Part shown: piece after piece, positions 449 through 28,923 of the stretch
Numbering within the stretch: the stretch's first letter is position 1
Layout of the letters: every line of letters starts with the position of its first letter
Assembly: GCA_951813565.1 (NCBI GenBank)
Contig: OX638351.1
Span: 3,904,001-3,968,000, forward strand
Direction of reading: 5' to 3'
Length of the DNA stretch: 64,000 nt
From: an uncultured Poribacteria bacterium
Lineage (GTDB): Bacteria; Poribacteria; WGA-4E; WGA-3G
Notes under the pieces: generated by a model
Seen by the model: the letters and a program-made list of their open reading frames with translations, nothing else
Database searches by the model: none
What the model was told of the DNA's origin: nothing
Program-made: the position numbers and the translations under genes

Positions 449-879
449 CAGGGTTATTTAGTTTTCGCTTTTTCTGGCGTATTTCATCACAACGTTAATG
501 TTTTATAGCAGCATTGTGGTCGGGTTTCGCTATCACCCTATCCATAGCCTCAACTTAGAAAAAAGATGTGCGATGCAAAGTAGTAGGCACACGCCGGGGA
601 ATGCCATAAGGCATTCATACCCGGTGAATGACTAAAGACGAATGCACTTGGTAGAATACGCTTTTGGTATTCTACATGATTCGCCATGATTCATACCGTT
701 GATTTCTTGATTTGGCGCATGCTGCGTTGATTTGGCTGAATCATGCGGAATACCAAAAGCGTATTCCGCCAAAAGGCATTCATAGCGTTGATTTATGGGT
801 TTCGCAAGCTCTACCCGACGGACGATATAAACTCACAGTAAAACTCAGTAACTGATAATTCTTAAAACTAAATAACCCT
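449..879. mobile_element. ISAs1-type MITE containing REP remnants and stacked micro-elements
   Basis: Ends CAGGGTTATTTAGTTTT (449) and AAAACTAAATAACCCT (864-879); 10-bp direct repeat ACCCTCAGAA at 439-448 and 880-889; ends match the ISAs1 TIR at 8511/9772. Confidence 0.8.
596..795. repeat. Nested stack of 28-35 nt hairpin micro-elements
   Basis: Repeated GAATGCC-loop-GCATTCATA(C/G)CGTTGATT, GCATGCTGCGTTGATT and GAATAC-GCTTTTG-GTATTC-CATG units, the same families as at 27374-27510 and 28821. Confidence 0.8.
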
Positions 880-994
880 ACCCTCAGAAAACAACTTCTT
901 GAAATTAACGGCAATATCTGATATAATGATAATATCAACTTCCCAATGGTATAGAAAAGCAATCATCAGGATAGGTAACACAGGAGACAACATC

Positions 995-3211
995 ATGAAT
1001 CGTTTTGAAAGAAAACAACGTTCACTGAATGCCTGCTTGATTGCTGGGATCGTTCATCTCTGCCTGGCTATCTTTTTAACATTTTTCTATTACACACGAG
1101 TTGCTAATGACTTTGAAGATGTTGTCGGTGTGGAATTTGTAGATATGAATGACCCCACCAAACAGAAACGCCGACTAAAACGTCCCCCACCCAAGCAGAT
1201 GCTTACGCCAAAACAGACGAAATCGTTAACCGCGGGACGCCCGAAACATGTAGCCTTAACCGCATCTTCTAATTTAATCGATGAAACCGTTCGCCCCTCC
1301 GAGAAGATTCTTATGCATAATGCTACAGAAACTATTTCTGAAACAGCGAAACAACTTCCTGATGTAACAACAGACACCCGAGAGATAAATAGTCGCACAG
1401 CATCAATCGCTAAATCTGTTACAAGCCCCTTCGAAATTACCTCTGGCGCGGGCAAAGAAAGCCTACGACAACGGGTTAAAGGTGATGGTGAAAGCGGATT
1501 TCACAGACTGGAGACAACCGGTGCTGCCGAAATTGGGCCTATTGGTGAGGGAATTGGGTTGGGTGGAGACGGTGGAAGTGGAAAAGGAATGGGCACCATG
1601 GACGCTTCTAACCCATTTGCTAAAGCACTCAAGCAAATTGCTGACCATATTATTGCTACTCGGACACTTGATAAAGTTAATGTAGTCTTTGTGCTTGATA
1701 CAAGTGCAAGCATGGGCGATAACATCCAACAGGTTGCCGAAAACCTATTTAGTATGACAGATGCATTCGATCTCGTCAATCTGGAATATCATTTGGGAAT
1801 GTCTGAATTCAGTGTTCGGGAAGGTGGACAAGAGCTTGAAACCCGATCTCTTGCCCCTGATGTGGGTTACCTCCGGCGTCGTATGCAAAAAGTAAAGCTG
1901 AGTGGAGATGAAAATGCGCTTGACGCGCTTATAGACACGTTGAATTTTATGGATTTTCACGCCGATGCAGACAAACACTTAATCTTGGTTACAGATGAAC
2001 CAGCAACAACAAGTATGAGAGAAGAAGGCGCATCCGAAACGGTGCAAGCGAAAGTGATTGATCAGTCTCAAATAGAGGATATTCACGTTAACGTTCTCGG
2101 ATTTCCCGAACCTTTTCAGCAGGAATTAGCTACTACTACAGGTGGCGTATGGCAGCAAATTCCGGGTAGCGTCTATAACCCTGCTGCTCTCCCAACTAAT
2201 CGCGCTGGAAACCAAAAATTTCTCAAAGTTTTCCGAGATATTGCTACTGATATTCGGAAGGGCGGTGCCAAAAAGTATTTTAGCCTTGATTTGAAGTTTG
2301 ATATGCCTGTTGAAGATGGGGAGATTCCTTTAGATAAATTACAACAAACATTCAAGGAAAACAGGGTTGGGTTGAAAAATTACACCTTTCGCTCTGAAAA
2401 TGCAACGGTTTTAGATAACAATCATAACGGTTTGTGGGTAATTACTGACAGAAAGAACAAGCAAATTTATGGCATATACAGAATTGAAAATAGATTAGAC
2501 GTTTATGCGGGTATCTACCCAAAAAACTGGAACTTGGGTGAGAATCTTATTGCGCGGACCCAGCAACACGGCAAAAGGTGGGTGCTAACGCATTCTCGGA
2601 ATAACCAAATATACACATTCCTGAAAGATAAAAACCGCCTTAACGTTTACACTGGAGGACAACCAGGGACGGCTTCCAATAATGCTGCAGAACCAATTGT
2701 AGACATTATGGTGATGTTAGACTATAGTAGGAGTATGGGCGGAAAGTCGCAAGCGGTCATGCTTGGCTTAAGCACGCTCATTGGTCGATTATCAATTTTA
2801 CCGATTAAATATCGGATTGGACTCATCCGTTTTGCTGAAGCAAAAGATGCTATTAAAGCTGTTGATGGTATCGTCGTGTCTCAGATGCCGCTTAATGAAG
2901 TTTTGATAGACAGTCTTATGGAAGCCCCATTTGGTGGTGATGAACATCTTATTGACGCTATTGTTGATGGAGTGCCTCAGGTAAAATTTAGCCCTTATGC
3001 AAGTCGATTCCTACTTATTTTAACTGATGAACCTACTACAGGAAAATATCCTGCAGAGCAAGCATTGGAGCTATGTCAATCGTTAGGTATTACTGCCTAT
3101 GTCATCGGTCATCCGAATCCTAATGATTTTCAAACGACTCTTGCTACACAAACCGGAGGAATCTTTTTTATAATGCCTAAGTTTTTAGAGAAGGCATATC
3201 CAAACCAATAA
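995..3211 (+). CDS. Membrane-anchored protein with two VWA (vWF type A) domains
   Basis: AGGAG RBS before ATG 995; N-terminal TM helix; two MIDAS motifs [10 protein letters not shown] and [10 protein letters not shown], each followed by LILV/LTDEP. Confidence 0.85.
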
Positions 3212-3233
3212 CTTGACGAAAAGAGGTTATTTT

Positions 3234-3752
3234 ATGACGACATCAACAAGCACGCAACAACATCGGGAGATCGCTGCTGAAGGAGGTCCTGTATCAGTTG
3301 CTATTGTGACCGTAAGCGATTCGCGCACACCAAAAACAGACACAAATGCTGCATTTCTACGCGAACAACTTGAAGCAGAAGGAAACAGCGTAACAGCCTA
3401 TCAAATTATAAAAGATGAACCCGACCAAGTCTCTGATGTATTGGACAAAATGGCGGAAACAGACGCTCAGGTCATTTTATTTAACGGCGGAACCGGTATT
3501 GCACCGAGAGACACGACTTTTGACGTGCTTGACCGTAAATTAGAAAAGACGTTACCGGGATTTGGGGAACTCTTTCGGATGTTTAGCTACGATCAAGTCG
3601 GTGCTGCTGCAATGCTATCGCGTGCGACAGCGGGCGTCTATCGTGGAAAAGTAGTTATTTCTACACCAGGTTCAAATGCTGCTGTGCGGTTGGCGTGGGA
3701 AAAACTCATCGGACCAGAACTGCAACATTTGGCATGGGAGGTCGGGCGTTAA
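3234..3752 (+). CDS. moaB: Molybdenum cofactor biosynthesis protein B (MoaB/Mog family)
   Basis: [39 protein letters not shown] motifs. Confidence 0.9.
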
Positions 3753-3780
3753 TTCACTAAACACCAATATTTTCTTTCTT

Positions 3781-3899
3781 GTAGGCGCGGTTTGAAACCG
3801 CGCCTTTTTTGTTTGAATCTTGGATTATTGGACTTCTTGTGGGAGCGCTTTGTAAGCGCGATTTTTGTGCATTGCATCGGCGTTGAAAACGCCTCCTAC
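3781..3899. repeat. GTAG/GTGG REP-like hairpins between convergent genes
   Basis: GTAGGCGCGGTTTGAAACCGCGCC followed by a T-run; GTGGGAGCGCTTTGTAAGCGC ... GGCGTTGAAAACGCCTCCTAC. Confidence 0.75.
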
Positions 3900-3940
3900 A
3901 ATAATTGTCGGGTTTCGGGACTTAACCTATGGACTATTTT

Positions 3941-4804
3941 TTACAACACCTCGCGGGTAAAGGTATACACCCCTCTCAACCACGACCCGTAATAGATACC
4001 ATTCGCATAACAGAAATAGATTGTCTTTAAACCGATTACGCAAATCAAGCAGAGGGATAGCACCGTAAGCAACCAATAATCCCACTTACCCGTCTGTGAA
4101 GTGCGTAAAGATGTCCGTTGCGTCGCGGTATCAGGAGAAAATCCACGACTTTCAACTGATTCGCCAAGGTTAGTTGCATGCCGAATGTTTCCTGCCAAGA
4201 TAGGTCGGAAACTATTGATAATACCCCGCGCGGAGGCAAACAGATTCAGCTGTAGGTAACGGAACCCCCGCAATCGCTGAGACCGAATGACAGCAGCAGC
4301 TTCACCTGCAATCACAGGAATGAAATGCAGCGCAGTTGTGACCATAAAGGCGAGTGCTCCCGGCACACGCAATTGTCCTAACGCGAGAAGAAGGTCACGA
4401 GGTTGTGTACTCCACACAATATAGCAACCGATGACAAGGGTAGTATTAAACCTCAGTGATTGAATGATACCGTGAAATAGACCTTCACGATAGATTCTAA
4501 TGCCGCCAGTCCATTCTCCGATGAGTGGAAACTCTGCTGGCACAAGCGTAATTAAAACTGTACGTGGAAATGCGTTGTAGAACATTCCTTGACTGTAAAT
4601 CAATCCCCACGTTGTAAAAAAGAGGAAAATGAGTAACAATCGGATTTGTCTTAAGGTCGGCATTGAAATAGCAATCAACACAAGGCTGGCAAGGAAACAT
4701 GTCAGCAACGCGGTTGGACTATCCAGCAGAATAACAAGACAACCACAAATCATCATGATGAGTATTTTTGTGCGGGATTCCAGTTTGATATTGTGTATCT
4801 CCAT
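3941..4804 (-). CDS. ECF transporter transmembrane (T) component, EcfT/CbiQ family
   Basis: Multi-TM protein with SQRLRG and VESRGF X-R-X motifs; downstream of the ECF ATPase. Confidence 0.88.
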   Translation of the reverse strand: MEIHNIKLESRTKILIMMICGCLVILLDSPTALLTCFLASLVLIAISMPTLRQIRLLLIFLFFTTWGLIYSQGMFYNAFPRTVLITLVPAEFPLIGEWTGGIRIYREGLFHGIIQSLRFNTTLVIGCYIVWSTQPRDLLLALGQLRVPGALAFMVTTALHFIPVIAGEAAAVIRSQRLRGFRYLQLNLFASARGIINSFRPILAGNIRHATNLGESVESRGFSPDTATQRTSLRTSQTGKWDYWLLTVLSLCLICVIGLKTIYFCYANGIYYGSWLRGVYTFTREVL

Positions 4805-4851
4805 TTTTCTTTCTTCTAATCTTGTGGGTGAAGTACAAAATGTATGGGTTT

Positions 4852-6372
4852 TCAAAATGCAAGTGAAGCTTGTTCAAGAAGTTTCGGATTAGCAAAAGCA
4901 CTATCAGGTGTGCCATCAAAAATCAGTTCACCTTCTTGCATCAACAGAACGCGGTCTGCATATTTCAAGGTGAGTTCTATGTTATGCGTTGTAAAAATGA
5001 GTGTTTTGCTTTCTTGGCGGATTTGATTGCAGAGCTCGTCCATCAAATGTTGAAGATGTTGCGCATCTTGACCTGTTGTAGGTTCATCAAGCAGGAATAT
5101 GTCGGGATGCAGCGAAAAGGTTGCAGCAACGGCAACGCGTTGCCGTTGCCCACGGGAAAGCGAATACGGCGCGTCTTCGGCAAAATCTGCTAACCTGAAT
5201 TGTACCAAAGTATCGGCTACTACGTTCTGGAGAATTTCAGGTTTCAACTTCAAATTCTTGGGACCAAATTCTACTTCACTCTTGACGGTTTCTGCCTGCA
5301 GCAACAGATCAGGATTCTGAAAGACAATTCCAACCTTTCCCGCTAACTGATGGAGTTTTCGACGTTTAGACATTTTTCCATCAATGGTAATTTCGCCTGA
5401 TGAAGGTTGAAGCAACCCTCCCATAAGATGGAGCAGCGTTGTTTTTCCAGACCCGTTTGCTCCCATAATAGCAATTATCTCCCTCCGCGACACTTTACAA
5501 GAGATAGCCTCTATCACATTCTTTTCACTGTTTGGATAACAAAAACTAATATCTTTGACGCTTAAGAGAGGATGGAATGAAGTTGTGTTCGGAGGAGGTT
5601 TTCGGTGAACAGAACTTGGTTGGTTGTCAGTTTCTGGCACTTCCACACCTAAACAACGAAAGACTGAAATGTCTTGAAATGCCTCTGCTTTCGGTAGGTC
5701 TAAACAGAGTTGCCCTTCGTGCATGAGCCAAACACGGTTGCACAATGGGGCGACCTCTTTAACACGATGTGTTGCCAACACAACTGTAATACCGATTTCA
5801 GTATTGAGTTGCTTAACAATGTTAAGGATGTCACGCGTTGCCCGTGGGTCAAGATGGCTTGTCGGTTCATCAAGAAGCAAGACTTGTGGTTGCATCGCAC
5901 AGATAGAGGCGAGAGCAACACGTTGCTTTTCCCCACCTGAAAGTTCTGAAATCCGTCTACCCTCAAATCCGATCAAACCCACCTGTTCTAATGCTGAAGC
6001 GATTCGTTTTTTGATCTTTTCAGGCGGAAAGCAAAGGTTTTCAAGCCCAAAAGCGATTTCATCTTCTACCAGTGTGCAAAAAAGTTGATCATCGGGATTT
6101 TGGAAGAGTAGAGCAACCTGTTGACACGTTCCTGCAAGCGATTGAGTGGCAACGTTTTCGTTGTTAACGCGGACAGCACCCGTCAATGTTCCAGAAGAAG
6201 CATGCGGAATCAAACCGTTTATGGTTCGTAGTAACGTGGTTTTACCGCACCCTGTTGGTCCTGTTAGCAGTACAAAATCACTTGGGAAAATCTCGGCATT
6301 GATGCTGTGAAGTGTGGGTATTTCGCGACTCGGATAGGTGAAGGAGAGATTCTCTATCTGAATTGGCACCAT
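4852..6372 (-). CDS. ECF transporter ATPase with two fused ABC domains
   Basis: Walker A GPTGCGKTT and GANGSGKTT; FQNPD Q-loops; LSGGEKQR and LSRGQRQR; LLDEPT twice. Confidence 0.92.
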   Translation of the reverse strand: MVPIQIENLSFTYPSREIPTLHSINAEIFPSDFVLLTGPTGCGKTTLLRTINGLIPHASSGTLTGAVRVNNENVATQSLAGTCQQVALLFQNPDDQLFCTLVEDEIAFGLENLCFPPEKIKKRIASALEQVGLIGFEGRRISELSGGEKQRVALASICAMQPQVLLLDEPTSHLDPRATRDILNIVKQLNTEIGITVVLATHRVKEVAPLCNRVWLMHEGQLCLDLPKAEAFQDISVFRCLGVEVPETDNQPSSVHRKPPPNTTSFHPLLSVKDISFCYPNSEKNVIEAISCKVSRREIIAIMGANGSGKTTLLHLMGGLLQPSSGEITIDGKMSKRRKLHQLAGKVGIVFQNPDLLLQAETVKSEVEFGPKNLKLKPEILQNVVADTLVQFRLADFAEDAPYSLSRGQRQRVAVAATFSLHPDIFLLDEPTTGQDAQHLQHLMDELCNQIRQESKTLIFTTHNIELTLKYADRVLLMQEGELIFDGTPDSAFANPKLLEQASLAF

Positions 6373-6390
6373 AGAAATAAATGATTGCCA

Positions 6391-8379
6391 TCAGTTATGT
6401 TGCAATTCTTCAATTTGTACTGGCATAAAACCGAAGAGCTGTTCTAAATGTCGAGTAACAGATTCTTGGAATGCATCGCATGTTCCCTGAACGTTCTGCT
6501 TGAAATCATCGTGGAGTTGCGCCTGTTGTGCGCTAACACGTGCAAAGAGATTACTGAGATAGGTTTGTAACTCACCCAGACGTTCACTTTGTGCTTTCGC
6601 AAAAGCAGCAACCGCTTCCTTGAAAGCAGTCAATTCTGCCTCTAAATACTCCTTAAACATAGATTTTTGGAAATTTTCGAGGGCACTATGTGCATCGTAG
6701 CGAAAGTCTTTATGGATAGATTCGTATTCTGACTTTACTCTCACACAAAGTTGGCGCGTGTATTTCTGAATTTCCTGCATCCGATCACCTTGCGCATGTG
6801 CAAATTGCGAAATTTTCGCTTTAAACGAATCCATTTCTCCTGACAAAAACGTCCTAAAATCTTCGACTGCGACAGTATGCCGTGTAATTTTCTCCAGATG
6901 ATACCCCATCACTGCTAATCGGACCGCTTCAGGAAACATCCTACGATCATGTTTAATCACTTTCGCCAAAAATTTCGCGTACTCCAATCCTTGTTTGGAG
7001 AAGAGTTGTCGCTGGATTGATAGAAAAAACGCGCGTACTTCCTCTTTGCGAATAGGTCTCACGTTATGTCGGGTGTATGGCCTGTGTTGAAGCATTTTAA
7101 AACAACGCTCAAAATAGTTCTTCAAAGTTGGATCGTAAAGCGTAGAAATTACACGTCGATATTCTTTAATAAGTTTCTCGCGTGGCATTTCTGGCACGAA
7201 ATTCAGACTCATATCTGTATTGTTGCCGCTTGATTCTATAAGCAGTCGGTCTTCCTTTTTCAATCTGTGCCAAAGGTCTGTTTCTTTTAGGGCGGTCAAC
7301 AATCCAGCCATCGCCATCGGAATTCCTGCTTCCTGAATGAAATTGATGTGTGAATCAAACTCGGTATCGCCATCAAGACCGATAATAAAGCCACCAGTGA
7401 CTTCCATTCCTTTATGCTGAATTTTTCTGATTGCATGCAATAGGTAACTTCCCGCGTCTTCTTCTTTACTTGTGTTTTGCCCTTTAGAAGTCGTAATTAG
7501 TGCTTCTTCATTTGGCGTTTCAATACCGAGAAATACCATATTAAACCCTGCAATACTCATCGCATCCAGCATTTCAGGGATTTCAACAAGGTTTACACTC
7601 GCTTCGGTATAGAGCGAAAACGGGAAATCGCGTTCTTCTTGCCACTCTTTTACTGCTGGCAGTAAACGCATTGCATCGCGTTTGTTCCCGATAAAGTTGT
7701 CATCAACAACAAACATTGCGCCTTCCCAACCGAGTTTATACAGCATCTCAAATTCAGCAAGCATCTGTTCATTGGTTTTGGTACGTGGGACGCGTCCGAA
7801 CAGTTTGGTAATATCGCAAAATTCGCAGTTAAAGGGGCATCCACGAGAAAATTGCAGTGCCATTGACCCGTAAGCATTTATATCAATTAGGTCGTATCGG
7901 GGTGGCGGTGTCTTTGTAATATCCGGTTTTCGCTGTTCACGATATACTTCTGTTGCAGATCCACTCTCAAAATCTGTTAAAAAGTCTTCAAAAATCTCTT
8001 CGACCTCACCAAAAAGGAAATGATTTACTGTTCCATCACATTCTTCTTTGATGTTATCGTAGTAGGATGTCGGATGAGGTCCACCTGCAATAATTGGCAC
8101 TTCGGCACCATTGCATCTTTCTACAACATCATACAGCGATGCTTTTTGAACGATCATCGTTGATGTTAACACCATATCTGCCCAATCAAGATGAGCATCT
8201 GTCAAGGTTTCAATGTTCATATCGACGACTTTTAAGTTATAATTATTAGGAAACATTCCAGCGATAGTCAATAATCCGAGAGGAGGCATTGATGATTTTT
8301 TACCGAGGAATTCTAAGGCGTATTTAAAACCCCAATATGATGGCGGGAACTTCGGATAAACGAACAATGCGTTTGGCAT
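6391..8379 (-). CDS. B12-binding radical SAM protein (DUF4070-type) with C-terminal helical repeat extension
   Basis: MPPLGLLT and AGGPHPT cobalamin-binding region; SRGCPFNCEFC CxxxCxxC; VDDNF; LGIET. Confidence 0.9.
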   Translation of the reverse strand: MPNALFVYPKFPPSYWGFKYALEFLGKKSSMPPLGLLTIAGMFPNNYNLKVVDMNIETLTDAHLDWADMVLTSTMIVQKASLYDVVERCNGAEVPIIAGGPHPTSYYDNIKEECDGTVNHFLFGEVEEIFEDFLTDFESGSATEVYREQRKPDITKTPPPRYDLIDINAYGSMALQFSRGCPFNCEFCDITKLFGRVPRTKTNEQMLAEFEMLYKLGWEGAMFVVDDNFIGNKRDAMRLLPAVKEWQEERDFPFSLYTEASVNLVEIPEMLDAMSIAGFNMVFLGIETPNEEALITTSKGQNTSKEEDAGSYLLHAIRKIQHKGMEVTGGFIIGLDGDTEFDSHINFIQEAGIPMAMAGLLTALKETDLWHRLKKEDRLLIESSGNNTDMSLNFVPEMPREKLIKEYRRVISTLYDPTLKNYFERCFKMLQHRPYTRHNVRPIRKEEVRAFFLSIQRQLFSKQGLEYAKFLAKVIKHDRRMFPEAVRLAVMGYHLEKITRHTVAVEDFRTFLSGEMDSFKAKISQFAHAQGDRMQEIQKYTRQLCVRVKSEYESIHKDFRYDAHSALENFQKSMFKEYLEAELTAFKEAVAAFAKAQSERLGELQTYLSNLFARVSAQQAQLHDDFKQNVQGTCDAFQESVTRHLEQLFGFMPVQIEELQHN

Positions 8380-8464
8380 AATATGTATCTAACTCCTTGT
8401 GGGCAAACATTCATGCCCTCTGCCAAAAACCGTAAAAATAGAAAATATAATTGCTCAATTAAGT

Positions 8465-8493
8465 ATTATACCACAATTCACCTTAAATGTCAA
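8465..8493 (-). promoter_or_regulatory. Sigma70-type promoter of the radical SAM/ECF operon
   Basis: TTGACA-17 nt-TATAAT, perfect consensus with extended TG, on the minus strand. Confidence 0.75.
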
Positions 8494-8510
8494 ATAATTC
8501 GGGTTTGCGA

Positions 8511-9772: not shown

Positions 9773-9912
9773 ATTCTAAAATGTATGGATTGAATATTAA
9801 AAGGAATTCGGCTAAAATACTGTTAAAAAAGCGAATTATAGGCACAACAAATTACTGACATAGATATTATTTAACAGATTGTGCCTTGTACACAGTCAAA
9901 ACAGGATTTAAC

Positions 9913-10707: not shown

Positions 10708-10745
10708 GACGAAGAATTATACATCAACCCATGTCCAGAATGAGA

Positions 10746-16233: not shown

Positions 16234-16655
16234 TACAGTGAAATCTAAAATTAACGACTTGTGCTAGTTAACTGTTTATTTTTGTTGTTTTCACACATAT
16301 TGGGTTTTTTTCTATAAACATATCGTCCCTACCAAATCAACGCCAAATGCGCTTATGGCATTTGGCGGGACTGAAGAGCATATCAACCAGTAGGAAACAC
16401 GGACAAAACGTTCTGCTTATGTGAAATAGTATGTTGCAAAAAGTTATTTAGCACAACTCGTAAAATTACTTGGACAATTCTTTATAGGTTTGCTGCGTTT
16501 GTAGTCGCGCAATTCATTGCGCCTCTTCCTGTAGGAGCGACCCGCCAAATGCCAAAAGCGCATTTGGCGTTGATTCGCAGGTCGCGACTTTAAAACTGTA
16601 GAACACTTTGTCCGTGCCGAGTGACAATGTCCAGTTAATTCTAAAATCCACTATA
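16234..16655. mobile_element. Composite MITE (outer TATAGTGG-type TIRs) with inner MITE, REPs and two 34-nt micro-elements
   Basis: Outer ends TACAGTGAAATCTAAAATTA..CTTGGACA and TGTCCAGTTAATTCTAAAATCCACTATA; inner element 16254-16461 with ACGACTTGTGCTA/TAGCACAACTCGT ends and AAAATTA duplication. Confidence 0.7.
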
Positions 16656-20555: not shown

Positions 20556-20650
20556 TACTGCGTAAATCTTATGAAGTTCATTTGATGTAATGATGCGTAA
20601 ATTTTTCAACATAATGTGTCGTGGTAAACAGCAGGAAATTTTGGAGAATT

Positions 20651-21604: not shown

Positions 21605-21614
21605 GAGGTGTCGT

Positions 21615-22724
21615 ATGCAAGACACCGAGTCATATATCGGTAGACACAAAACTGAATTAGATACGCCCGCGCTGTTAATTGATCTGGATAAAATGGAAGC
21701 CAATATCCAGAAGATGGCGGATTATTTTACTAATGTCAGCGCGGAACTCAGACCCCATCTCAAAACGCATAAAACGCCGATTATCGCACATAAACAGATT
21801 GAAGCGGGAGCAATAGGCATAACTTGTGCTAAATTGGGTGAAGCGGAGGCAGTAATTCATGCGGGAATTCGAGATGTCCTAATTGCCAATCAGATTGTCG
21901 GTCCACATAAGATAGCACGTCTTATCAACCTTGCAAAGCATTCTGAGATTATGGTTTCTGTGGACAACTCTCACAATGTGCAGGCTATTTCCGAAGCAGC
22001 AACAGCAAAAGGGGTAACTATCAGAATCTTGGTGGAAGTCAACATCGGGATGGATCGGTGTGGTGTTGAACCCGGTCAACCAACACTTGCGTTGACACAT
22101 CAGGTATGCCAAAGTCCAAACCTGAAGTTTGAAGGATTGATGGGATATGAGGGGCATACCGTCGCAAAACCGAACAGAACCGAACGTGAGACTGCGACAC
22201 GAGAAGCCATGCAACGCTTGATTGAAACGAAACATTTTCTTGAAGAGCATAGTGTAGAGGTTTCAATTATGAGCGGCGGTGGCACAGGCACTTTTGACAT
22301 CACAGGGAGTATTCCCGAAATGACGGAGGTGCAGGCTGGTTCTTATGTCTTCATGGATTCGACCTATCACAATGTTGAAGGCATTGGAGGAAAGTTTGAC
22401 AACGCATTGTCAGTTTTGGGCACTGTCGTCAGTTGTCCCGCACAGAATCGCATCATCGTAGACACGGGTTTGAAAGTGCTTACGAAGGAGTTCGGCATTC
22501 CACAACCGATTGTTGTTGCTGGACTCGAAATGACGGGTCTTTCCGAAGAGCATGGGAAAATGCTGGTTTCCAACGGAGATGTTTCCCTTAAACTGGGAGA
22601 TAAACTTGAAATTTTACCTACACACTGTTGTACCACTGTTAATCTGCACGATAGATACTACGGCATCCGTAATGAGATTGTCGAATCTGTCTGGGAAATT
22701 ACCGCAAGAGGAAAATCACAATAA
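21615..22724 (+). CDS. DSD1/D-threonine aldolase family PLP-dependent enzyme
   Basis: [47 protein letters not shown]. Confidence 0.92.
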
Positions 22725-23044
22725 TGATCACAACTACAACGAATACGATTGAAGGCAGACAAGTTGGACAATACCTTGGCTTAGTTACAGGTGAGGCAAT
22801 CATGGGGGCAAATATCTTTCGTGATTTTCTCGCTGGTATTACAGATATGATTGGCGGCCGCTCCGAAGCTTATGAAAGCAAACTTGCTGATGCACGTGAG
22901 ACCGCAATCCGAGAAATGCAAGAAATCGCGCAACGGCAAGGTGCTGATGCTGTCCTCGGTATTGATATTGACTATCAGGTGCTTGGTTCCAGTAACGGTA
23001 TGCTGATGGTGACCGCAACCGGAACTGCTGTTAAGTTAAAATAA
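22724..23044 (+). CDS. YbjQ / UPF0145 family protein
   Basis: TTTNTIEG...GANIFRD...GGRS..YE...GADAV...[11 protein letters not shown]. Confidence 0.93.
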
Positions 23045-23072
23045 ATGAAGGTTGTACATAAAATAACCAATT

Positions 23073-23349
23073 TATAGTGAACTTTGAAATTATTGGGACT
23101 CTTTGCTAAACTTGTCTTGGAAAGATAATGGACAATAGAAGTTGTAGCACAAACTTTTAGTTTGTGCCTTATGAGACGCAAACTAAATGAAGATTAATTT
23201 ATTAATTCGGTAATTTTGGAGAAAGATCCAGTGCGGTTGGGAAACCGCACCTACCGGGTTTGGGAAAAATTAGAATTACCGAAATATTTTCTTAATCTTC
23301 ATAAAGTTTGCGCTACAGAAGTGTCCCATTAATTATAGGTTTTACTATA
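23073..23349. mobile_element. Nested MITE > REP pair > MITE > REP
   Basis: Outer TIRs TATAGTGAACTTTGAAATTATTGGGAC and GTCCCATTAATTATAGGTTTTACTATA; inner element 23188-23301 with TGAAGATTAA/TTAATCTTCA ends and TAAA duplication in a REP loop. Confidence 0.75.
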
Positions 23350-23554
23350 AATGTGTGTTTAAAAGTAGTAGGCACGCGCCGCGTGCCGTAACAACTTCAA
23401 AGAGGACACAAATGCTGAACGCGTATTTAGCGTTGATTTAAACAGTCAACTCGTGCAAAGATAAAAAGTGTTGGGTTTCACGTTGTTCAACTCAACCTAC
23501 AACATTTTCTAAACCCACGCTCAATTAAAAAACAAAATTTATAGGAGGACTGCG

Positions 23555-24733
23555 GTGCAAAATTTAATTTCAACATATAAACTAAATATTAAATGTAAAC
23601 GTCATGACATAATAGGACTGCTTGCTACGATTATTTTTCTGTCCACACAGTTAAGCGCAAATGCTTATATTTCAATACCTTATACCATTCCGCAAATTGT
23701 CAGTGAAAGTACCAACGTTGTTTTTGGAACTATCACAGAGGTTAACACCAAACGACAGACAGCTGATATTAAGGTTGAACAAAACCTCAAAGGTCGCAGC
23801 GAATTTGACGTGATTAGAATTCGCTTTGATATTTTTAAAGGGGAAGCAGACCATAGAAAAGAGATTGCGCGTTTTCTAAAGCAGGGTGAACCGATTGTTG
23901 TTTGTTATGAACAAAAAGAAGGGCGGATCAACAGTATTGCACATACAAGAGGAAAATGGTTTCAACTCATGGTTACAAAGGATAAAGAGAGAGGTTGGGG
24001 TAGGTGGGGGTTCACCCATTTTGAAGTCAAACTCAATCAGTTCAAAGTTTCAAAAAGAGATTCAACACCCGAATTCCAGAAAGAGGTACGCGCTGTCCTT
24101 AATGGAGATATAATCCGCCTCTTTCTTCTGAACAGAAAAAACTATCAAAAGGAAGTTCCTGTTATTTCCAGCATTGATAAGGTGGGAAAACGTTGGATTG
24201 CCTTTGATGAGACAACCGATCGCAACCTGCCAGGGCTTAGTAAAACTGACATATTATGGCTTGGCTACCGCGCAATTGATGATGGCAGATACCTCCTAAA
24301 TAAGAACCAAGAGAAACGGATCAGAGATTTTGTCAAGAACGGCGGCATTGTCATTGTTTCTGGTCAGGATTGTGATACAGATCGTCCAAGCAGAACCGAT
24401 TGGTTACCTGAACCTCTCAAAGGTGTAGAAAGCCCCCGTCGAAATGACTTCCAGCCTACATCCAAAGCAGGTTCCCTTTTTAAAGCACCGCATCAAATCC
24501 GTTCAGGACATCTTTCACTTGACGACTCCTGGAACGGGTGGAACGATAAATATGAAGTGTTAGCCACAACCAATAATGGCAAGGAAATTGTTGTTGCTCA
24601 ATTGAGATATGGGAAAGGCATGTATGTGATCACAAACCTACGCAATGATAGTAAAGAACAGGTTGCTCAAAACCACAAGATGCTTGAGAATCTTGTGCAT
24701 TTTGCTGTAGAATTCTTGGGTAAATCCAAATAG
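23555..24733 (+). CDS. Secreted hypothetical protein with C-terminal GATase-like (class I fold) domain
   Basis: AGGAGG RBS; signal-like segment; IRDFVKNGGIVIV..DWLP..YGKG..MLENLV, shared with 29014-29790. Confidence 0.65.
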   Translation: MQNLISTYKLNIKCKRHDIIGLLATIIFLSTQLSANAYISIPYTIPQIVSESTNVVFGTITEVNTKRQTADIKVEQNLKGRSEFDVIRIRFDIFKGEADHRKEIARFLKQGEPIVVCYEQKEGRINSIAHTRGKWFQLMVTKDKERGWGRWGFTHFEVKLNQFKVSKRDSTPEFQKEVRAVLNGDIIRLFLLNRKNYQKEVPVISSIDKVGKRWIAFDETTDRNLPGLSKTDILWLGYRAIDDGRYLLNKNQEKRIRDFVKNGGIVIVSGQDCDTDRPSRTDWLPEPLKGVESPRRNDFQPTSKAGSLFKAPHQIRSGHLSLDDSWNGWNDKYEVLATTNNGKEIVVAQLRYGKGMYVITNLRNDSKEQVAQNHKMLENLVHFAVEFLGKSK

Positions 24734-24750
24734 TACGGGAGTTATAACGT

Positions 24751-26286
24751 ATGAGAAAAACCACATGGATATTGACCTTAAGTCTCATATCGGTTTTTGT
24801 CTGTTTCACAGCCACAGCACATGCAGTTATTCCGCAGCTTCTCGGACCACTTACTGCCCTGCTTAGCATCATCCCGCAGATACTCGCCTTTGTCGGCGTT
24901 GCTGTTCTAACCGCGCTTGTATTTGCACGCGATACAACAAAGATGTATTTTTACAAGCTGCGAGATTTTCTGACTGTCCGCAGAGTGATTGTCTCTGTAA
25001 TTAGTTTGGTTGTCCTAATTGGGTTAGCGGTATTGACCTATCAATTTGTTGGGAAAGGAATAAAAGAAAATGTTACCACGACAGGTACAGACGATCAGCG
25101 TGCTGGCACAAAAAATGTAAGAACAGGCACGGCATGGACAACGTTCCGAAGCAATGCAAATCGCACAGGGCACGTTGATGACCTACCCGGTCCTACAAAC
25201 GGAACCCCTTCCTGGGTTTTCAAAGCTAAAGGGAGAAAAACGGTTCAATTCCTTTCATCACCAACAATCGTAGGTAACCGTCTTTATATTGGTTCGCTCC
25301 AAGGTGCAGTTTTTTCTGTTAGTGGTGCAACTTATTGTATAGACACGGATACGCAGGAAGTTGTCTGGCGGCACGATTCAGAAATACCTATCGTTTCCTC
25401 ACCTGCTGTTGTTGCAGGTAGGGTTTACATCGGTGAAGGTTTTCATGAAGATAGTGGTTGCCGACTCCGATGTCTTGATGCAAAGACTGGCGATCCTATC
25501 TGGAGTTTCACTACTGCAAGCCATGTGGAGTCTACACCATTCATTACCCAAGGAAGGCTCTATTTTACTGGTGGTGCGGACGGTATTTATTGCCTTGACG
25601 CGCTGGCAGGTGAGCAAATATGGCACTTTCCTGCTGTTCATGCAGACATGTCCCCAATAGTTAAAGATGGTAAGGTTTATTTTGGTACCGGTTACGGTGA
25701 ATATAAAATCTATGCTGTGGATGCTGAAACAGGTGCCGAGATATGGTCAAAACCCATGCCGTATCCGGTCTGGGGCAGCCCAAGTGTGCACGACAACTTA
25801 GTCTTTTTCGGTTTAGGCAGAGGTGATTTTTCTCAAAGTCATCCTATTCCAAAGGGGAAAGTTGTCGCGCTAAACACCGAAACAGGCGATATCGCCTGGG
25901 AATATGAGGCAGCAGACGCGGTCCTTACAGCGATTGTCGTACACGATGATTTTGTAACTTTTGGTTCCCGCGACGGTTTTGTGTACACACTCACAGCAAC
26001 AAGTGGCGAACTCCATTGGGAAACCGATCTTGGTGCAGTCATTGTGTCATCACCTGCTGTAACACAAGAGGCTGTTTATGCTGCAACGGAAGCCGGAGTA
26101 ATCTACTGTCTCGCCATTGATGATGGCAGCATTATATGGGAATATGATACACAGACCGTTGAATATGGGTTGAAACTCCTTTCTTCTCCAGCTATTGCAG
26201 ATGGAAAACTATACATCGGTTCAAGTGACCGGTATATTTTATGCTTAGGTGGAAAAGAGCTTGTTCCAACCGTTGAAGATCGTTAA
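24751..26286 (+). CDS. Membrane-anchored PQQ-like (BamB-like) beta-propeller protein
   Basis: Repeated SSPAV..G.VY.G...LDA.TG...W blades; hydrophobic N-terminal segments. Confidence 0.9.
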   Translation: MRKTTWILTLSLISVFVCFTATAHAVIPQLLGPLTALLSIIPQILAFVGVAVLTALVFARDTTKMYFYKLRDFLTVRRVIVSVISLVVLIGLAVLTYQFVGKGIKENVTTTGTDDQRAGTKNVRTGTAWTTFRSNANRTGHVDDLPGPTNGTPSWVFKAKGRKTVQFLSSPTIVGNRLYIGSLQGAVFSVSGATYCIDTDTQEVVWRHDSEIPIVSSPAVVAGRVYIGEGFHEDSGCRLRCLDAKTGDPIWSFTTASHVESTPFITQGRLYFTGGADGIYCLDALAGEQIWHFPAVHADMSPIVKDGKVYFGTGYGEYKIYAVDAETGAEIWSKPMPYPVWGSPSVHDNLVFFGLGRGDFSQSHPIPKGKVVALNTETGDIAWEYEAADAVLTAIVVHDDFVTFGSRDGFVYTLTATSGELHWETDLGAVIVSSPAVTQEAVYAATEAGVIYCLAIDDGSIIWEYDTQTVEYGLKLLSSPAIADGKLYIGSSDRYILCLGGKELVPTVEDR

Positions 26287-26429
26287 CTTTGGTATAGATT
26301 TTAATAATATCTTATTCTATTTACACGCTAAGAATTAGTAAATTGACTATAATTTATCTTGTAAACCGCGAACTCGCAATCACGTTTACTTACAAATGAT
26401 CAATTTAACTTCTAACAAGGAGAACGAAA

Positions 26430-27284
26430 ATGAAAAAGTTTTTGATTGCAATTACACTATTGCTATTCCTCACAAGTGTTGCAGCACATGCACAGTGGCG
26501 CAGCAAAACACATGACGTTTACAACGCACTTCAAAATACTCTTGACATTAAGATTGATGGTGAACTTGATGACGCTGAAGGGTGGGAAGGTGTATTTGAT
26601 ACAGTCAAAGGGACCAATGGAGAACCATTCTGCGGTGTCAAAAATGATACTGATGGGGCAGGAGCAGAGAAAGCTTTTGAATCCCATGGAGGAGGCGATT
26701 GGAAAGGGGCTGATGACCACGAAACCTGTTTTGCAATTGTCTGGGAACCAGATGCCGTTTATATTGGACTAAGTGTTACTGATGACGAGCATCAAAATGG
26801 CGGTGGACAATGGAACGGTGATAGCTTGCAGCTTGCATTTGAACCGACTGGTAAGCGCGACGGAGGACTAACACTCTTTCTCTATAACGTTGCGTTAGGC
26901 AACGATGCAAAGAACATGCTTCCTGTTCATAATGAGACAACAAACGGTGGTCCAGGACTTGTTGCTGGGGAAGATGTCGCCATAACCCGAAACGAAAACG
27001 AAAAAGAGACTTATTATGAAATTGCAATTACTCCTGAAGATTTGGGCTTGAATAGTCAGTTTAAAGAAGGATACGAATTCGGAATCGGAATTTGTGTCAA
27101 CGATGGCGATAAAGCCGCCGGCCAAGAAGGGCAAAAAGGGTGGAGTGGATGGTATCCACGTGCGGTTGTTCACGGAAAAAATTCTGAAAATACAGGGCTT
27201 GTCATTCTCACTGATGAAGTTCTTGCTGTTGAACCTTCAAATAAGTTAACAACAACTTGGGGTAAACTAAAATCAACCCAATAG
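26430..27284 (+). CDS. Secreted CBM9/DOMON-like sugar-binding protein with C-terminal TWG motif
   Basis: Signal peptide; IKIDGELDD, VYIGLSVTDD, WNGDSLQL, YYEIAI, ICVNDGD; ends AVEPSNKLTTTWGKLKSTQ. Confidence 0.8.
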   Translation: MKKFLIAITLLLFLTSVAAHAQWRSKTHDVYNALQNTLDIKIDGELDDAEGWEGVFDTVKGTNGEPFCGVKNDTDGAGAEKAFESHGGGDWKGADDHETCFAIVWEPDAVYIGLSVTDDEHQNGGGQWNGDSLQLAFEPTGKRDGGLTLFLYNVALGNDAKNMLPVHNETTNGGPGLVAGEDVAITRNENEKETYYEIAITPEDLGLNSQFKEGYEFGIGICVNDGDKAAGQEGQKGWSGWYPRAVVHGKNSENTGLVILTDEVLAVEPSNKLTTTWGKLKSTQ

Positions 27285-27557
27285 GTGTCAACTTAAGGAT
27301 ACACCTTCTTGTGGGAGGGGTTTGTAACCCCGATTTAATTAGTTTAGGTTCACAAAAGCGGGGTTACAAACCCGACAAATGCCAAAAGCAGAATCAACGC
27401 CGAGCGCGCGTATGGCACTCGTCGCATTTGGCGTTGATTTGGCAGCATGCCATACGGGGAATGCCAACAAGCATTCATACCGTTGATTTGGCGCATGCTG
27501 CGTTGATTCACTCCCACAAGAGACAATCTGGTAATTATGTGCTTAAATTGACGCCTA
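27282..27557. mobile_element. MITE with 24-bp target duplication, carrying an inverted REP pair and a micro-element stack
   Basis: TIRs TAGGTGTCAACTTAAG and CTTAAATTGACGCCTA; direct repeat TGGGGTA(A/G)ACTAAAATCAACCCAA at 27258-27281 and 27558-27581. Confidence 0.85.
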
Positions 27558-27755
27558 TGGGGTAGACTAAAATCAACCCAATAACTGTTTTGACATAAGC
27601 TAAAACTGCTAAACCGTAGCGGAAAAACAGCCGCTACCTAATCTGTTTGGGCAGAAATACCTGCCCAATTTTCTAACACAGGAAGCAACGCTGTTGCTCT
27701 TTCAAAACTTCCACTGCTAAGGTGGAATATAATTAATATAGAGAGGTAAATTTAG

Positions 27756-28601
27756 ATGAAAAAACAGGTTTTTGTATTTGCTGCACTATTTGCAGCAGTA
27801 ACTCTACTTACAATTAATGTCGCAGATGCACAGTGGCGTAGTCCAACACACGATGTATACAATGCCCCATCTGGTGTTGACGTTACCATTGATGGTAATC
27901 TTGACGAATGGGGTGAGGTTATGGATGCTGTCACTGGAACTGACGGTTCCCCGTTTTGCGGCGTAGAATTTGAAGGCGTCGGCGGCGCAGTTAAAGTTTT
28001 TGAAGAACACGGTGGTGGTAAATGGAACAGTGCTGATGACCAAACAGTCTGTTTCATGATTGCTTGGAACCCCGATGCGGCTTATCTTGCACTGAGTGTT
28101 ACTGATGACGAGCATCAAAATTCCGGTGCTGCATGGAATGGTGATGCCGCACAAATCGCATTTGAACCAACTGGCAAGCGCGATGGAGGGTTAGCACTCT
28201 TTCTCTATAACGTTGCATTAGACAACAATGCAGAAAATCTCATCCTTCATAATGAGAGAACAAACGGACAACCTGGTCTTGAGGCAGAGAGAGATTTTGC
28301 AATCACTCGAGACGAGGGTGCTAAGAAAACCTACTACGAATTTAAATTCACTCCTGCGAATTTCGGTCTTGCTGGTTCATTTAGTGCAGGTATCGAAGTC
28401 GGTTTAGGTATCTGTGTCAATGATGGCGATATAGACACTCCTGGGCAAAAAGGGTGGGGTGGTTGGTATCCGCATTCTGTTGTCCACGGAAAAAATTCCG
28501 AAAAGACGGGACTTGTTGTGCTTAGCAGCAATGCGGTAACCGCTGTTGAACCAGCTGATAAACTTACTACTACATGGGGTAATTTGAAATCTACCCAGTA
28601 G
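27756..28601 (+). CDS. Secreted CBM9/DOMON-like sugar-binding protein (paralog) with C-terminal TWG motif
   Basis: Strongly similar to 26430-27284; ends AVEPADKLTTTWGNLKSTQ. Confidence 0.8.
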   Translation: MKKQVFVFAALFAAVTLLTINVADAQWRSPTHDVYNAPSGVDVTIDGNLDEWGEVMDAVTGTDGSPFCGVEFEGVGGAVKVFEEHGGGKWNSADDQTVCFMIAWNPDAAYLALSVTDDEHQNSGAAWNGDAAQIAFEPTGKRDGGLALFLYNVALDNNAENLILHNERTNGQPGLEAERDFAITRDEGAKKTYYEFKFTPANFGLAGSFSAGIEVGLGICVNDGDIDTPGQKGWGGWYPHSVVHGKNSEKTGLVVLSSNAVTAVEPADKLTTTWGNLKSTQ

Positions 28602-28632
28602 CAGCTTAACACTTATCAGTAATCTTTAGTTC

Positions 28633-28664
28633 CATTATAGTGGTTCATTCGAACCACTATAATG
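28633..28664. terminator. Strong hairpin after the CBM9-like gene, possible terminator
   Basis: CATTATAGTGGTTC-ATTC-GAACCACTATAATG. Confidence 0.5.
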
Positions 28665-28733
28665 AAAAATATGTTTCAATCAAATTAGATGTTCCCGGTG
28701 AACTTTCAATACCGCTTCTGTATTAGGCTCTAA

Positions 28734-28923
28734 TACCAATTCTAAAATACAATGTCCCATTTAACATACTGCAATTTAATGGAATATCTATAGAAGATAA
28801 GAATGTCCGAGGCGCCAAGTCATGGCGAATACCATACGCGTATTCGCCCAAGTGCGCTTGGCAATGAATTGCGCGACTACGAACAGATAATTTGAAAATG
28901 AGAAGTTATTTTCAGAAATGGTA
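28734..28923. mobile_element. TACC...GGTA MITE with TAA duplication, REP cargo and 28-nt micro-element
   Basis: TAA|TACCAATTCTAAAA ... TTTTCAGAAATGGTA|TAA. Confidence 0.7.

Follow-up and report, generated by a model that had tools for sequence, protein, structure and literature searches.

The window, a stretch of 64,000 nt from an uncultured Poribacteria bacterium, holds three copies of a small hairpin repeat headed by the bases CAT, here called the CAT unit, together with the hairpins that host them and a MITE-like element that carries two of them (Table 1). It also contains four 34-nt units of a related family, the first family, in which the hairpin is followed by GTTGATT. The three CAT hairpins lie exactly where the first-pass annotation had placed them, each inside another hairpin and each followed by A-Y-T (ATT, ATT and ACT for copies 1 to 3), and their loops are the reverse complements of first-family loops, all as described there. 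Searching the window with the core pattern returns these three sites and no further match, and the pattern is absent from every one of 100 dinucleotide-preserving shuffles of the window.

Table 1. CAT units, host hairpins, carrier element and first-family units in the window
Feature	Position	Strand	Description
CAT unit copy 1	651..678	-	minus read CAT GTAGAATAC CAAAAGC GTATTCTAC; forward GTAGAATAC-GCTTTTG-GTATTCTAC-ATG
CAT unit copy 2	742..769	+	CAT GCGGAATAC CAAAAGC GTATTCCGC; opposite strand GCGGAATAC-GCTTTTG-GTATTCCGC-ATG
CAT unit copy 3	28821..28848	+	CAT GGCGAATAC CATACGC GTATTCGCC; opposite strand GGCGAATAC-GCGTATG-GTATTCGCC-ATG
Level-1 CAT unit, host of copy 1	637..688	-	CAT GGCGAAT ... 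CAAGTGC ATTCGTC; GGC/GTC unit
Level-0 host of the nest	623..706	+	first-family hairpin GGTGAATGAC TAAA ... ATTCATACC with GTTGATTTC tail
Host of copy 2	735..795	+	first-family hairpin GCTGAAT ... CAAAAGGCATTCATAGC, tail GTTGATTTA
Host of copy 3	28811..28862	+	diverged first-family hairpin GGCGCCAAGT ... CAAGTGCGCTTGGC
MITE-like element carrying the cluster of copies 1 and 2	450..879		perfect 16-nt TIRs at 450-465 and 864-879
First-family 34-nt unit, for comparison	16544..16577	+	hairpin GCCAAATGC CAAAAGC GCATTTGGC + GTTGATTCG
First-family 34-nt unit	16333..16366	-	loop CATAAGC
First-family 34-nt unit	50757..50790	-	loop CGTAGGC
First-family 34-nt unit	60342..60375	-	loop CAAACGC

Of three nested levels, copy 1 is the innermost. 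It takes the place of the inner 4-5 nt of the level-1 CAT unit, which lies in the level-0 hairpin. The level-1 unit is found filled in 39 and unfilled in 24 composites that have at least 45 nt of flank in common on each side. Paralogue contigs skip exactly positions 637-688 and carry TGTT or TGTC instead, and the level-0 host occurs in its empty form, ..GGTATGAAT-GACA-TTTAGTCATTC.., in 4 + 9 copies. The context of copy 2 is present 10 times in the genome and has the empty relatives GCTGAATGCCATAAAGGCATTCATAGCGTTGATTTAT and GCTGAATGCCAAAAGGCATTCA. For the host of copy 3 there is one empty copy, GCGACAAGT-GCCA-TAAGTGCGCTTGG, and the repeat cluster of about 290 nt around it is absent at the orthologous site of G006, G045 and G049. 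The proposal that CAT units parasitise the first family is apt in the sense of a landing site: copies 2 and 3 lie directly inside first-family hairpins and copy 1 two levels down, although other hosts are used too. Copies 1 and 2, inverted relative to each other and separated by 63 nt, fold together as one long hairpin (z ~ -8). The MITE-like element around them is flanked by the direct repeat ACCCTCAGAA; genome-wide we counted 58 + 55 such ends forming 23 pairs, the smallest element being about 120 nt long. Repeated insertion builds such three-level nests, which then multiply as passengers of larger repeats.

The CAT unit is a discrete, gene-less cassette of 28 nt. Read with CAT first, it consists of CAT, a 9-bp arm, a 7-nt loop (C....GC) and the second 9-bp arm, with the consensus CAT + G-N-N-GAAT-R-C + C-N4-G-C + complementary arm. 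The pattern CATNNNGAATRCCNNNNGCGYATTC has 93 matches in the genome, and none when read backwards, which disposes of the outcome that would have spoken against a family, namely that only three copies exist; a looser search (any arms, at most one mismatch) gives 102. The covariation of the outer pairs seen in the window holds in a larger set of 26 distinct sequences, where pairs 2, 3 and 8 of the stem covary. At pair 2 these sequences have CG 6, GC 6, UA 5, AU 3, GU 3 and UG 1 times. Both sides have changed in 40 cells, whereas shuffling gives 14.3 +/- 3.9 (none of 500 shuffles attains 40) and slid partners give at most 2; the percentage paired is inflated in this set, as it was chosen at no more than two stem mismatches. 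Of 37 copies with a mismatch, 33 have G.T on the CAT strand, the most frequent type there (by kind, 5 G.T versus 2 A.C).

Both the suggested sisterhood of the two families and the inversion of the loop are borne out. The CAT unit and the 34-nt family have the GAATRC core and the loop repertoire in common, and the extra bases of the CAT unit stand on the opposite side of the asymmetric loop. Among 293 hairpins oriented by their loop, 99 have a 5' CAT versus 7 with the mirror form, and 150 have a 3' GTTGATT versus 4; CAT and GTTGATT occur together in none of 290 hairpins of a slightly different census. The first-family units show clean presence and absence of 34 nt genome-wide.

The hairpin-repeat system hardly occurs outside one genus of Candidatus Poribacteria, which are sponge symbionts: 36 of the 39 other genomes of the genus have the CAT unit (37 of 40 with this genome), and the rest of the phylum yields five single matches only. 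In this genome 85 of 94 units lie outside crude ORF calls, which cover 83% of it. The GC skew of the genome is poor in a comparison of leading and lagging strand. We counted 41 distinct combinations of sequence and flank, and the GTA unit alone was found behind at least 8 different host arms. Identical copies, 39 of them, all lie within one composite repeat of about 160 nt. Since most copies ride in larger composites, insertion events must be far fewer than copies.

Filled and empty sites whose flanks are identical show that the CAT unit has been copied repeatedly into one defined spot of look-alike sequences. Within the 5' arm of the host, this spot immediately follows ..(C/G)A(A/G/C)T. There the next 4 or so nucleotides (G-N-C-N) are replaced by the 28 nt, and the 3' arm of the host is left stranded. 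Thus 28 nt stand in place of the middle four in filled forms of GGTATGAAT-GACA-TTTAGTC, TATGAAT-GCCA-TTTAGGC, CTACAAAT-GCCA-TTGAGGC, CTACAAAT-GCCA-TTTAGGC, GTCAAAT-GCCA-CAAGCGC, GACAAAT-GCCA-CACGCGC and TATGAAT-GCCA-TTTATACC. Nine of ten family contexts have lost 4 nt and retain 7 nt before the ATT of the host. The empty hairpins are perfectly paired through the four nucleotides (GAC/GTC, AAC/GTT, GCC/GGC), and filled forms retain the now partnerless 3' half. In four contexts a C immediately follows the unit at a position that is A or T in the empty site. The junctions expected at first, a 26-nt insertion or 28 nt for 2, are not the usual ones, as 28 nt replace 4 in six family contexts and two IS lineages; a 2-nt replacement fits the host of copy 2 only, and there only by comparison with an empty copy whose outer flanks differ. 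The replaced length does vary (28 for 4, 27 for 4 in some IS copies, possibly 28 for 2), and its value depends on which empty copy is taken as the precursor. None of the filled/empty pairs has a target-site duplication and target bases are lost instead, so that the CAT unit itself is not a DDE-type MITE.

A site outside the hairpin families bears on the direction of the change. Three diverged sublineages of an IS-like transposase gene carry an identical CAT unit at one and the same site. Each sublineage has both empty and filled copies, and no more than 3-6 nt from the junction their flanks already differ. The empty form occurs in 7 of 10 aligned genomes; filled copies are present in G000, G003, G045 and G049 only. 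Empty copies in G043 have an intact ORF of 384 aa, and one filled copy has gained 8 codons with the frame still open. Judged from these alignments, the change at this site is certainly from empty to filled. This largely refutes the idea that the unit is immobile, with one ancestral nest that diverged, copies that spread as passengers and empty forms that are secondary deletions. Such a history would account for the 39 of about 99 copies in one composite, two of them within the TIR-bounded MITE, for whole clusters that come and go at orthologous sites, and for the slippage deletions between arm repeats which do occur (one copy; also chimeric forms). It also suits the level-2 nest, which must have arisen once since its junctions are identical in all 8 genomes that hold it. 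It would not explain an ancestral empty state with intact ORF alongside the same unit in three diverged sublineages, nor would deletion recreate the complementary bases seen in the empty hairpins, and we regard it as very unlikely.

We suggest that the unit most likely spreads by homology- or microhomology-guided copying between look-alike hairpins, which would need no dedicated enzyme, although we hold this tentatively and would put its probability somewhat short of even. The process might be template switching or very short-tract gene conversion at replication stalled by a hairpin. The growing strand would leave the target at the common ..AAT. Then CAT and the hairpin would be copied from a filled site elsewhere, the strand would be freed once the new hairpin folds at its foot, and it would re-anneal a few bases downstream, often at CAA. 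The variable replaced length and the absence of a target duplication favour such copying over an enzyme of fixed geometry. So does the sequence that the IS site has in common with the donor context at position 3554893, TCAAAT on the left and CAA on the right; this resident context carries the very same GCA/TGC unit. The C after the unit in the four contexts looks as if copied from the CAA flank of a donor. The perfect stems would then reflect selection for foldability or templated correction within the hairpin, and the covariation would not point to an RNA function. Against microhomology copying, the strict polarity and the mostly constant geometry are equally expected from a sequence- and strand-specific enzyme, and the founding insertion in each host type shows little or no right-hand microhomology, for example where a unit ending in GTC is placed before TTTAG. 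Furthermore, distant loci seldom undergo ectopic template switching in the bacteria studied.

A dedicated strand-specific enzyme acting on folded single-stranded DNA is a possibility to which we give real, if lesser, weight. It could be a transposase of HUH/Y1 type, an Ssn-like nuclease combined with repair, or a new kind of enzyme, and it would read the asymmetric-loop hairpin and the upstream CAT, cut after A-N-T and about 4 nt downstream, and swap the cassette. The strict polarity relative to the loop, the sequence-specific target A-N-T | G-N-C-N, which includes the IS gene site in three sublineages, and the recent amplification of the composite argue for it. The prevalence of G.T mismatches suggests that it is the CAT strand that folds. 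Three conserved bases upstream of the palindrome and usually a C after it parallel what is reported for the Ssn/NTS system (PMC11893778). The 39 near-identical composites and the clean insertions of the 34-nt sister units point to active transposition machinery somewhere in the system, and the CAT unit might use it. The inconstant replaced length speaks against an enzyme, and the loss of target bases and the two cuts are at odds with HUH-type transposition in particular; to our knowledge the latter (IS608/ISDra2) leaves the target bases in place and requires no second cut in the target.

A search for a cognate enzyme in three families (RAYT, IS200/IS605 and GIY-YIG genes) with one flank test also gave no candidate. 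The RAYT type occurs in 20 and a second Y1 type in 22 of the 40 genomes of the genus, and copy number tracks neither: G014 has 96 copies without RAYT, G017 has 122 without the second Y1 type, and G018 and G038 have RAYT and 0 copies. The three RAYT-like genes of this genome (L053, L055 and G000:3549542-3550111) are flanked not by CAT units but by hairpins of two other families, GTCGCGA..TCGCTCC or GCGAGGTTAGGAAACCTCGC; one first-family hairpin adjoins RAYT1, merely as part of a common composite. The absence of a cognate RAYT flanked by the units and of co-occurrence speaks against counting the CAT unit among the REP/REPIN-RAYT systems. An origin from IS200/IS605 elements (PATE-like) does not fit either, since the IS ends carry an unrelated CCCCTACCTTTAGGTAGTGGG hairpin and the unit replaces 4 nt. 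PF01541 gives three matches, in open frames of 583, 265 and 627 aa and none of them a single-domain GIY-YIG gene, a search that a very divergent Ssn could escape; the 249-aa ORF within the 265-aa frame looks UvrC-like. The flank test found no gene convincingly bracketed by family hairpins. The lack of a single-domain ssn gene and of a hairpin-bracketed gene in these searches speaks against a system of Ssn type. It is conceivable, though less likely than not, that the CAT hairpin is an autonomous-looking 28-nt 'homing' cassette moved by a strand-specific cut-and-replace enzyme of Poribacteria which reads A-N-T|G-N-C-N next to a folded hairpin. If true, few known site-specific mobile elements would be as small, the cassette would give access to a new class of ssDNA-editing enzyme, and its net gain of 24 nt (8 codons) would let it enter coding sequence in frame.

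Stem covariation and G.U-compatible mismatches on one strand would also suit spread by an RNA intermediate, in which the hairpin is transcribed, reverse-transcribed and integrated. Elhai and colleagues reportedly proposed this in 2008 for the SDR elements of cyanobacteria, to which the CAT unit is analogous. Two RNA runs contain only 6-9% of the sequence words. The units have no orientation preference relative to neighbouring genes and the loss of 4 nt is not accounted for, so in our view this route is highly improbable.

Whether by microhomology-guided copying, as we favour, or by another route, the junction with about four target bases replaced and no duplication constrains any proposed mechanism, and with the filled/empty series one can address whether very small palindromes depend on an enzyme at all or owe their spread to errors of replication. 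The CAT hairpins and related elements shape most large intergenic regions of Poribacteria genomes. Short-read assemblies break at them, and they offer markers for strain typing.

Several systems resemble the CAT unit. Yeast mitochondrial GC clusters and Rickettsia palindromic elements are small selfish palindromes which are gained and lost, nest and sometimes lie in frame in genes; they differ from the CAT unit in genome, size, sequence and target rules. REPs and REPINs are likewise extragenic palindromes of 20-40 nt in about 100 or more copies, one CAT-unit subfamily starts with GTAG as REPs do, and RAYT genes are present in this genome; we know of no REPs that insert into each other's arms with base replacement. 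The Ssn-associated NTS/dRS3 hairpins are cut by single-domain (~94 aa) GIY-YIG ssDNA nucleases, and cutting and binding are reported to depend decisively on the NTS flanks, three upstream bases and a C after the palindrome (Chenal et al. 2025, PMC11893778). Like the CAT unit with its oriented, conserved, non-palindromic flanks, NTS are hairpin repeats that number in the hundreds and have an orientation; their flanks set the polarity and are read on one strand only. The two differ in how the arms are arranged (ATTC..GAAT in NTS, GAAT..ATTC in the CAT unit), and CAT units nest, whereas NTS are not described as doing so in the sections on these hairpins.

The closest published analogue is SDR1-8 of heterocystous cyanobacteria, likened by description and not by sequence match. 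The SDRs of Elhai and colleagues are said to be gene-less dispersed repeats of 21-27 nt, some of which form hairpins kept by compensatory changes and nest in their own copies and in minitransposons. The CAT unit, at 28 nt, is similarly dispersed in many, mostly intergenic copies, and it nests in its own copies (the three-level nest) and in a TIR-bounded MITE (the cluster). Both are tiny, lineage-confined and without a known enzyme. SDR5 is described as inserting precisely, at a single position within a short target (PMC4390886), whereas the CAT unit replaces about four target bases; HIP1, the SDR5 target, is not enriched in this genome (50 copies). SDR-like repeats are reported in Nostocaceae only (PMC5861425). 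As its host belongs to the Poribacteria, the CAT unit is at best an analogue of the SDRs and not a member. It suggests that a 28-nt hairpin with a 3-nt head suffices for site-specific spread outside the Nostocaceae, where such elements have been published.

The three hairpins that the first-pass annotation had reported lie where it placed them, and the pattern GAATAC-GCNNNTG-GTATTC matches exactly these three sites in the window, with no match in 100 dinucleotide-preserving shuffles. The element is read here on the strand whose loop is C....GC. Read in this way it consists of CAT, a 9-nt arm, a 7-nt loop and a second 9-nt arm, 28 nt in total, and is called the CAT unit here. The window also holds four 34-nt units (hairpin and GTTGATT tail) of the first family, the sister of the CAT unit. 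The proposed kinship of the loops is borne out: CAAAAGC, CATAAGC and others form one repertoire for both families. In their outer triplets the CAT family is unlike the first family.

CAT units, their nested series and associated elements in the window and in its genome (G000) or a related genome (G003)
Feature	Position	Strand	Remarks
CAT unit copy 1	window 651-678	minus	
CAT unit copy 2	window 742-769	plus	
CAT unit copy 3	window 28821-28848	plus	
MITE-like element holding the cluster of copies 1 and 2	window 450-879		perfect 16-nt TIRs (AGGGTTATTTAGTTTT); 10-nt flanking direct repeat ACCCTCAGAA
Repeat cluster around copy 3	window 28680-28995		~290 nt, between two genes
Level 0, empty host hairpin			GGTATGAAT-GACA-TTTAGTC
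Level 1, GGC/GTC unit at the level-0 site			24 copies
Level 2, GTA unit within the GGC/GTC unit			39 copies, including window copy 1
Tandem first-family units	G000:2679134-2679300		five identical 34-nt units, outside the window
RAYT-like gene (L053)	G000:241500-243100		
RAYT-like gene (L055)	G000:5070500-5071600		
RAYT-like gene	G000:3549250-3550400		
IS-like element with 28-for-4 replacement (L090)	G003:3651100-3652250		compared with L089

The stem was analyzed in 26 distinct sequences, drawn from 18 of the 19 arm-distinct variants of G000 and 9 of the 14 units from fetched loci after removal of one probable chance match and of duplicates. As this set was preselected at no more than two mismatches, its 96.2% of paired stem cells is not informative, but the covariation counts are. 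The covariation seen in the window copies extends to the larger set, where pairs 2, 3 and 8 are altered on both sides and pair 2 is present in all four Watson-Crick types. We counted 40 cells changed on both sides versus 14.3 ± 3.9 after shuffling (0 of 500 shuffles reach 40), and sliding the partner left at most 2. On the CAT strand G.T is the prevailing mismatch (33 of the 37 mismatched copies, 25 of the 33 from one lineage). A target-site origin of the outer pairs, as a palindromic dinucleotide duplicated on insertion (TSD), is ruled out because CA/TG and GA/TC pairs occur too. The polarity relative to the loop is strict. Among 293 loop-oriented hairpins CAT stands 5' in 99 and in mirror form in 7, and the GTTGATT tail stands 3' in 150 and in mirror form in 4; none of the 290 hairpins of a slightly different census carries both.

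The family is not confined to the three window copies. The closed genome G000 (5.43 Mb, 43% G+C) contains 93 matches to the pattern CATNNNGAATRCCNNNNGCGYATTC, and a looser search raised the count to 102 copies, which fall into 41 different sequence/flank combinations; a few of these are doubtful. The pattern occurs in 36 of the 39 other genomes of the genus, with 0 to 122 copies per genome. Outside the genus we found single matches only, in the one genome of one sister genus and in 4 of the 65 genomes of another, and none among the genomes examined of the phylum's remaining 28 genera. The same pattern read backwards has no match in G000 or in any other genome searched across the phylum. By crude ORF calls, which cover 83% of G000, 85 of 94 units are intergenic, and by the same calls their orientation shows no preference relative to the neighbouring genes. 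Between leading and lagging strand the units are split 53 to 40, a count of little weight because the GC-skew extremes of the genome are unevenly spaced (4.56 Mb apart on one side and 0.87 Mb on the other). In Rfam nothing but two microRNA look-alikes of the long inverted pair turned up, both below threshold. Spread of the unit by an RNA route gains no support from our data and seems very improbable to us.

The insertion signature can be read from hosts that are themselves family hairpins. For the junctions, a 26-nt insertion or a replacement of 2 nt by 28 nt had been proposed. In six contexts, filled and empty sites with exact shared flanks show instead that GACA or GCCA directly after ..AAT is exchanged for 28 nt. 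The 28-for-2 form fits only the host of copy 2, where an exact fit is obtained only with an empty copy of different outer flanks. The junction is thus not perfectly constant. In the empty hairpins the replaced bases pair with the 3' arm (GAC/GTC, AAC/GTT, GCC/GGC). The filled form keeps this 3' half without its partner, and the direction of the change is therefore insertion. On the CAT strand the junction falls between (C/G)A(A/G/C)T and G-N-C-N; in four contexts the base after the unit is C, against A or T at the empty site. A clean 28-nt insertion into hosts with 7-bp arms was rejected, as the 0-nt empty form is absent in all 35 contexts. The first family behaves differently: when exactly 34 nt (hairpin and 9-nt tail) are excised, 25 of the 70 contexts tested revert to a sequence found at another place, which makes this family, unlike the CAT unit, a clean insertion. 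Throughout the genome such insertions lie immediately 5' of another unit, which often has different arms, and in one place the 34-nt unit forms a tandem array (see table).

CAT units also nest. Empty host, unit in host and unit within unit form a three-step series with at least 45 nt of common flank on each side (levels 0 to 2 in the table). The level-2 nest is present in 8 of 40 genomes with identical junctions and differing inner loops; it must have arisen a single time, long ago, and its loops change faster than the stems. The inner loops come from the small repertoire common to both families, and their variation suggests loop exchange or selection. A 50-nt junction pattern that fixed all positions but the outer triplets, two bases of the host loop and the middle four of the inner loop yielded the inner loops CAAAAGC, CATACGC, CACACGC, CCTACGC, CATAAGC and CAAACGC across the genus. 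Decayed forms are also seen, in two other genomes (G014 and G017) and as a single copy in G000. Deletions between the GAAT or GCATTC repeats of host and guest have produced chimeras, for example GGTATGAAT-CATGGGGAAT-GC...GCATTCATACC, or a unit without its loop and 3' arm.

The cleanest insertion is the CAT unit at genome position 924880, within a multi-copy IS-like element of 1.07 kb. The element encodes an ORF of 384 aa, intact in G043, with a weak, sub-threshold match to DDE_Tnp_1 (E 0.007). Among ten aligned genomes, seven show the empty site, TTTTTGG-AGAC-AGTTG or a variant of this sequence, and G000 has 27 nt in place of the 4. In a second lineage of the element, with just 69% identity, both empty (CGAC or CGGC) and filled copies occur in G003 and G049, with 28 nt for 4 in three G003 copies and 27 for 4 in the rest. 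A third sublineage is filled in G049 and has its empty counterpart in G045. The unit is identical in all three sublineages, and the flanks diverge only a few bases away from the junction. The insertion site resembles an arm of the family hairpins. The unit is a discrete element whose insertion is site-specific and recurrent, at the cost of a few target bases and with no duplication. Purely passive inheritance of the units is contradicted by these sites, and we regard it as improbable. The 27-for-4 copies are frameshifted. In the 28-for-4 copies of G003 the frame stays open (RH becomes AEYACGILHD, net +8 residues); the filled element is multi-copy and may therefore still transpose with the eight extra residues.

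The number of copies does not equal the number of insertion events. The identity of the 39 GTA units is due to their location in one composite repeat of ~160 nt, and the remaining two window variants are also carried in conserved contexts. Nests, once formed, move on as passengers. MITE-like elements with AGGGTTATTTAGTTTT ends, such as the one that holds copies 1 and 2, are ruled out as the vehicle of the composite, since just 2 of the 39 lie in them. Such ends occur 58 and 55 times in the genome and form 23 close pairs; the smallest such elements are ~120 nt long with 9-10-nt duplications, and the window copy has been enlarged to 430 nt by the hairpin cluster. In five close genomes we located the gene at the sites orthologous to copies 1 and 2, but the region upstream of it could not be aligned. 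G006, G045 and G049 lack the repeat cluster around copy 3 at the orthologous site, and G003 has part of it; all four retain the terminator-like hairpin TCCATTATAGTGGTTC..GAACCACTATAATGGA just upstream of it. Contigs assembled from public runs break at the repeats. One joint leads from 636 to 689 with TGTT or TGTC between, another from 476 to 810 (X9 and X8, short sides); these joints derive from paralogues or other strains and demonstrate no polymorphism of the unit at the window locus. Two public RNA runs contained 6-9% of the sequence words. A further modular layer is seen in G000 with the composite 'TGTGAATCAAC-hairpin-GGGAGCGATCTCCGAATCGCGAC' (~25 copies): the RAYT-type repeat and a 'GTCGCGCAATTCATTGCGCC' module are regular fusion partners of first-family hairpins.

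We searched for an enzyme that could move the unit. G000 has 10 matches to Y1_Tnp. Five of them belong to an IS200/IS605 element with TnpB (~1.73 kb), four to full-length copies and one to a copy whose right end is truncated; this element was rejected as mover, its end hairpins being unrelated to the CAT unit. Three genes are RAYT-like, one with an internal stop, and are flanked by two other repeat families, GTCGCGA..TCGCTCC(TAC) hairpins or GCGAGGTTAGGAAACCTCGC (31 exact copies); the former include a tandem array that follows the first gene downstream. The genome thus seems to hold two REP/RAYT systems of classical type alongside its GAATRC hairpins. Genes of RAYT type are present in 20 of 40 genomes of the genus and do not track the copy number of the unit; on both grounds RAYT was discarded. 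A further Y1 class (158-aa query), to which two of the 10 matches belong, is found in 22 of the 40 genomes and was likewise discarded for lack of co-occurrence with copy number. PF01541 revealed no Ssn-type GIY-YIG protein, as the only three GIY-YIG matches in G000 are all long frames. Among genes bracketed by family hairpins none of seven candidates is convincing: five are short ORFs (61-100 aa), two apparently ordinary genes, and two of the ORFs, of ~91-100 aa, clearly read repeat sequence.

How, then, does the unit spread? We tentatively favour microhomology-guided copying, by template switching or very short conversion tracts, because the number of replaced bases is variable, the base that follows the unit seems in some cases to come from the donor, and no enzyme is in sight. 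Also in its favour, ..A-N-T, always present on the left, and CAA, frequent on the right, could serve as anchors, and folding of the newly made hairpin would explain the sharp 3' end. A dedicated strand-specific enzyme is a strong rival and a possible mover. It fits the strict polarity, the mostly constant junction geometry and the recent burst of the ~160-nt composite; the variable replacement and the search for a mover speak for copying.

In the literature searched we found no account of such nested hairpin elements in Poribacteria. The matches listed for Poribacteria with palindromic sequences concern CRISPR or general genomics, a search for 'smallest mobile' hairpin repeats of bacterial genomes gave no match, and one for 'small dispersed repeat(s)' only the REPIN paper. 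Our analysis contributes the target rule and the replace-four signature, statistics on polarity and covariation, the IS-gene site with three filled/empty pairs, and a search among the obvious enzymes that came out negative. The CAT unit lacks one tested defining feature each of REP/REPIN, IS200/IS605 derivatives, Ssn motifs and MITEs. Work on Ssn, a family of ssDNA nucleases, describes hairpin targets with oriented flanks (PMC11893778), and the conserved CAT upstream and C downstream of the CAT hairpin are a suggestive parallel. Closest in kind among published elements, judging from passages that cite them, are the SDR elements of Nostocaceae.
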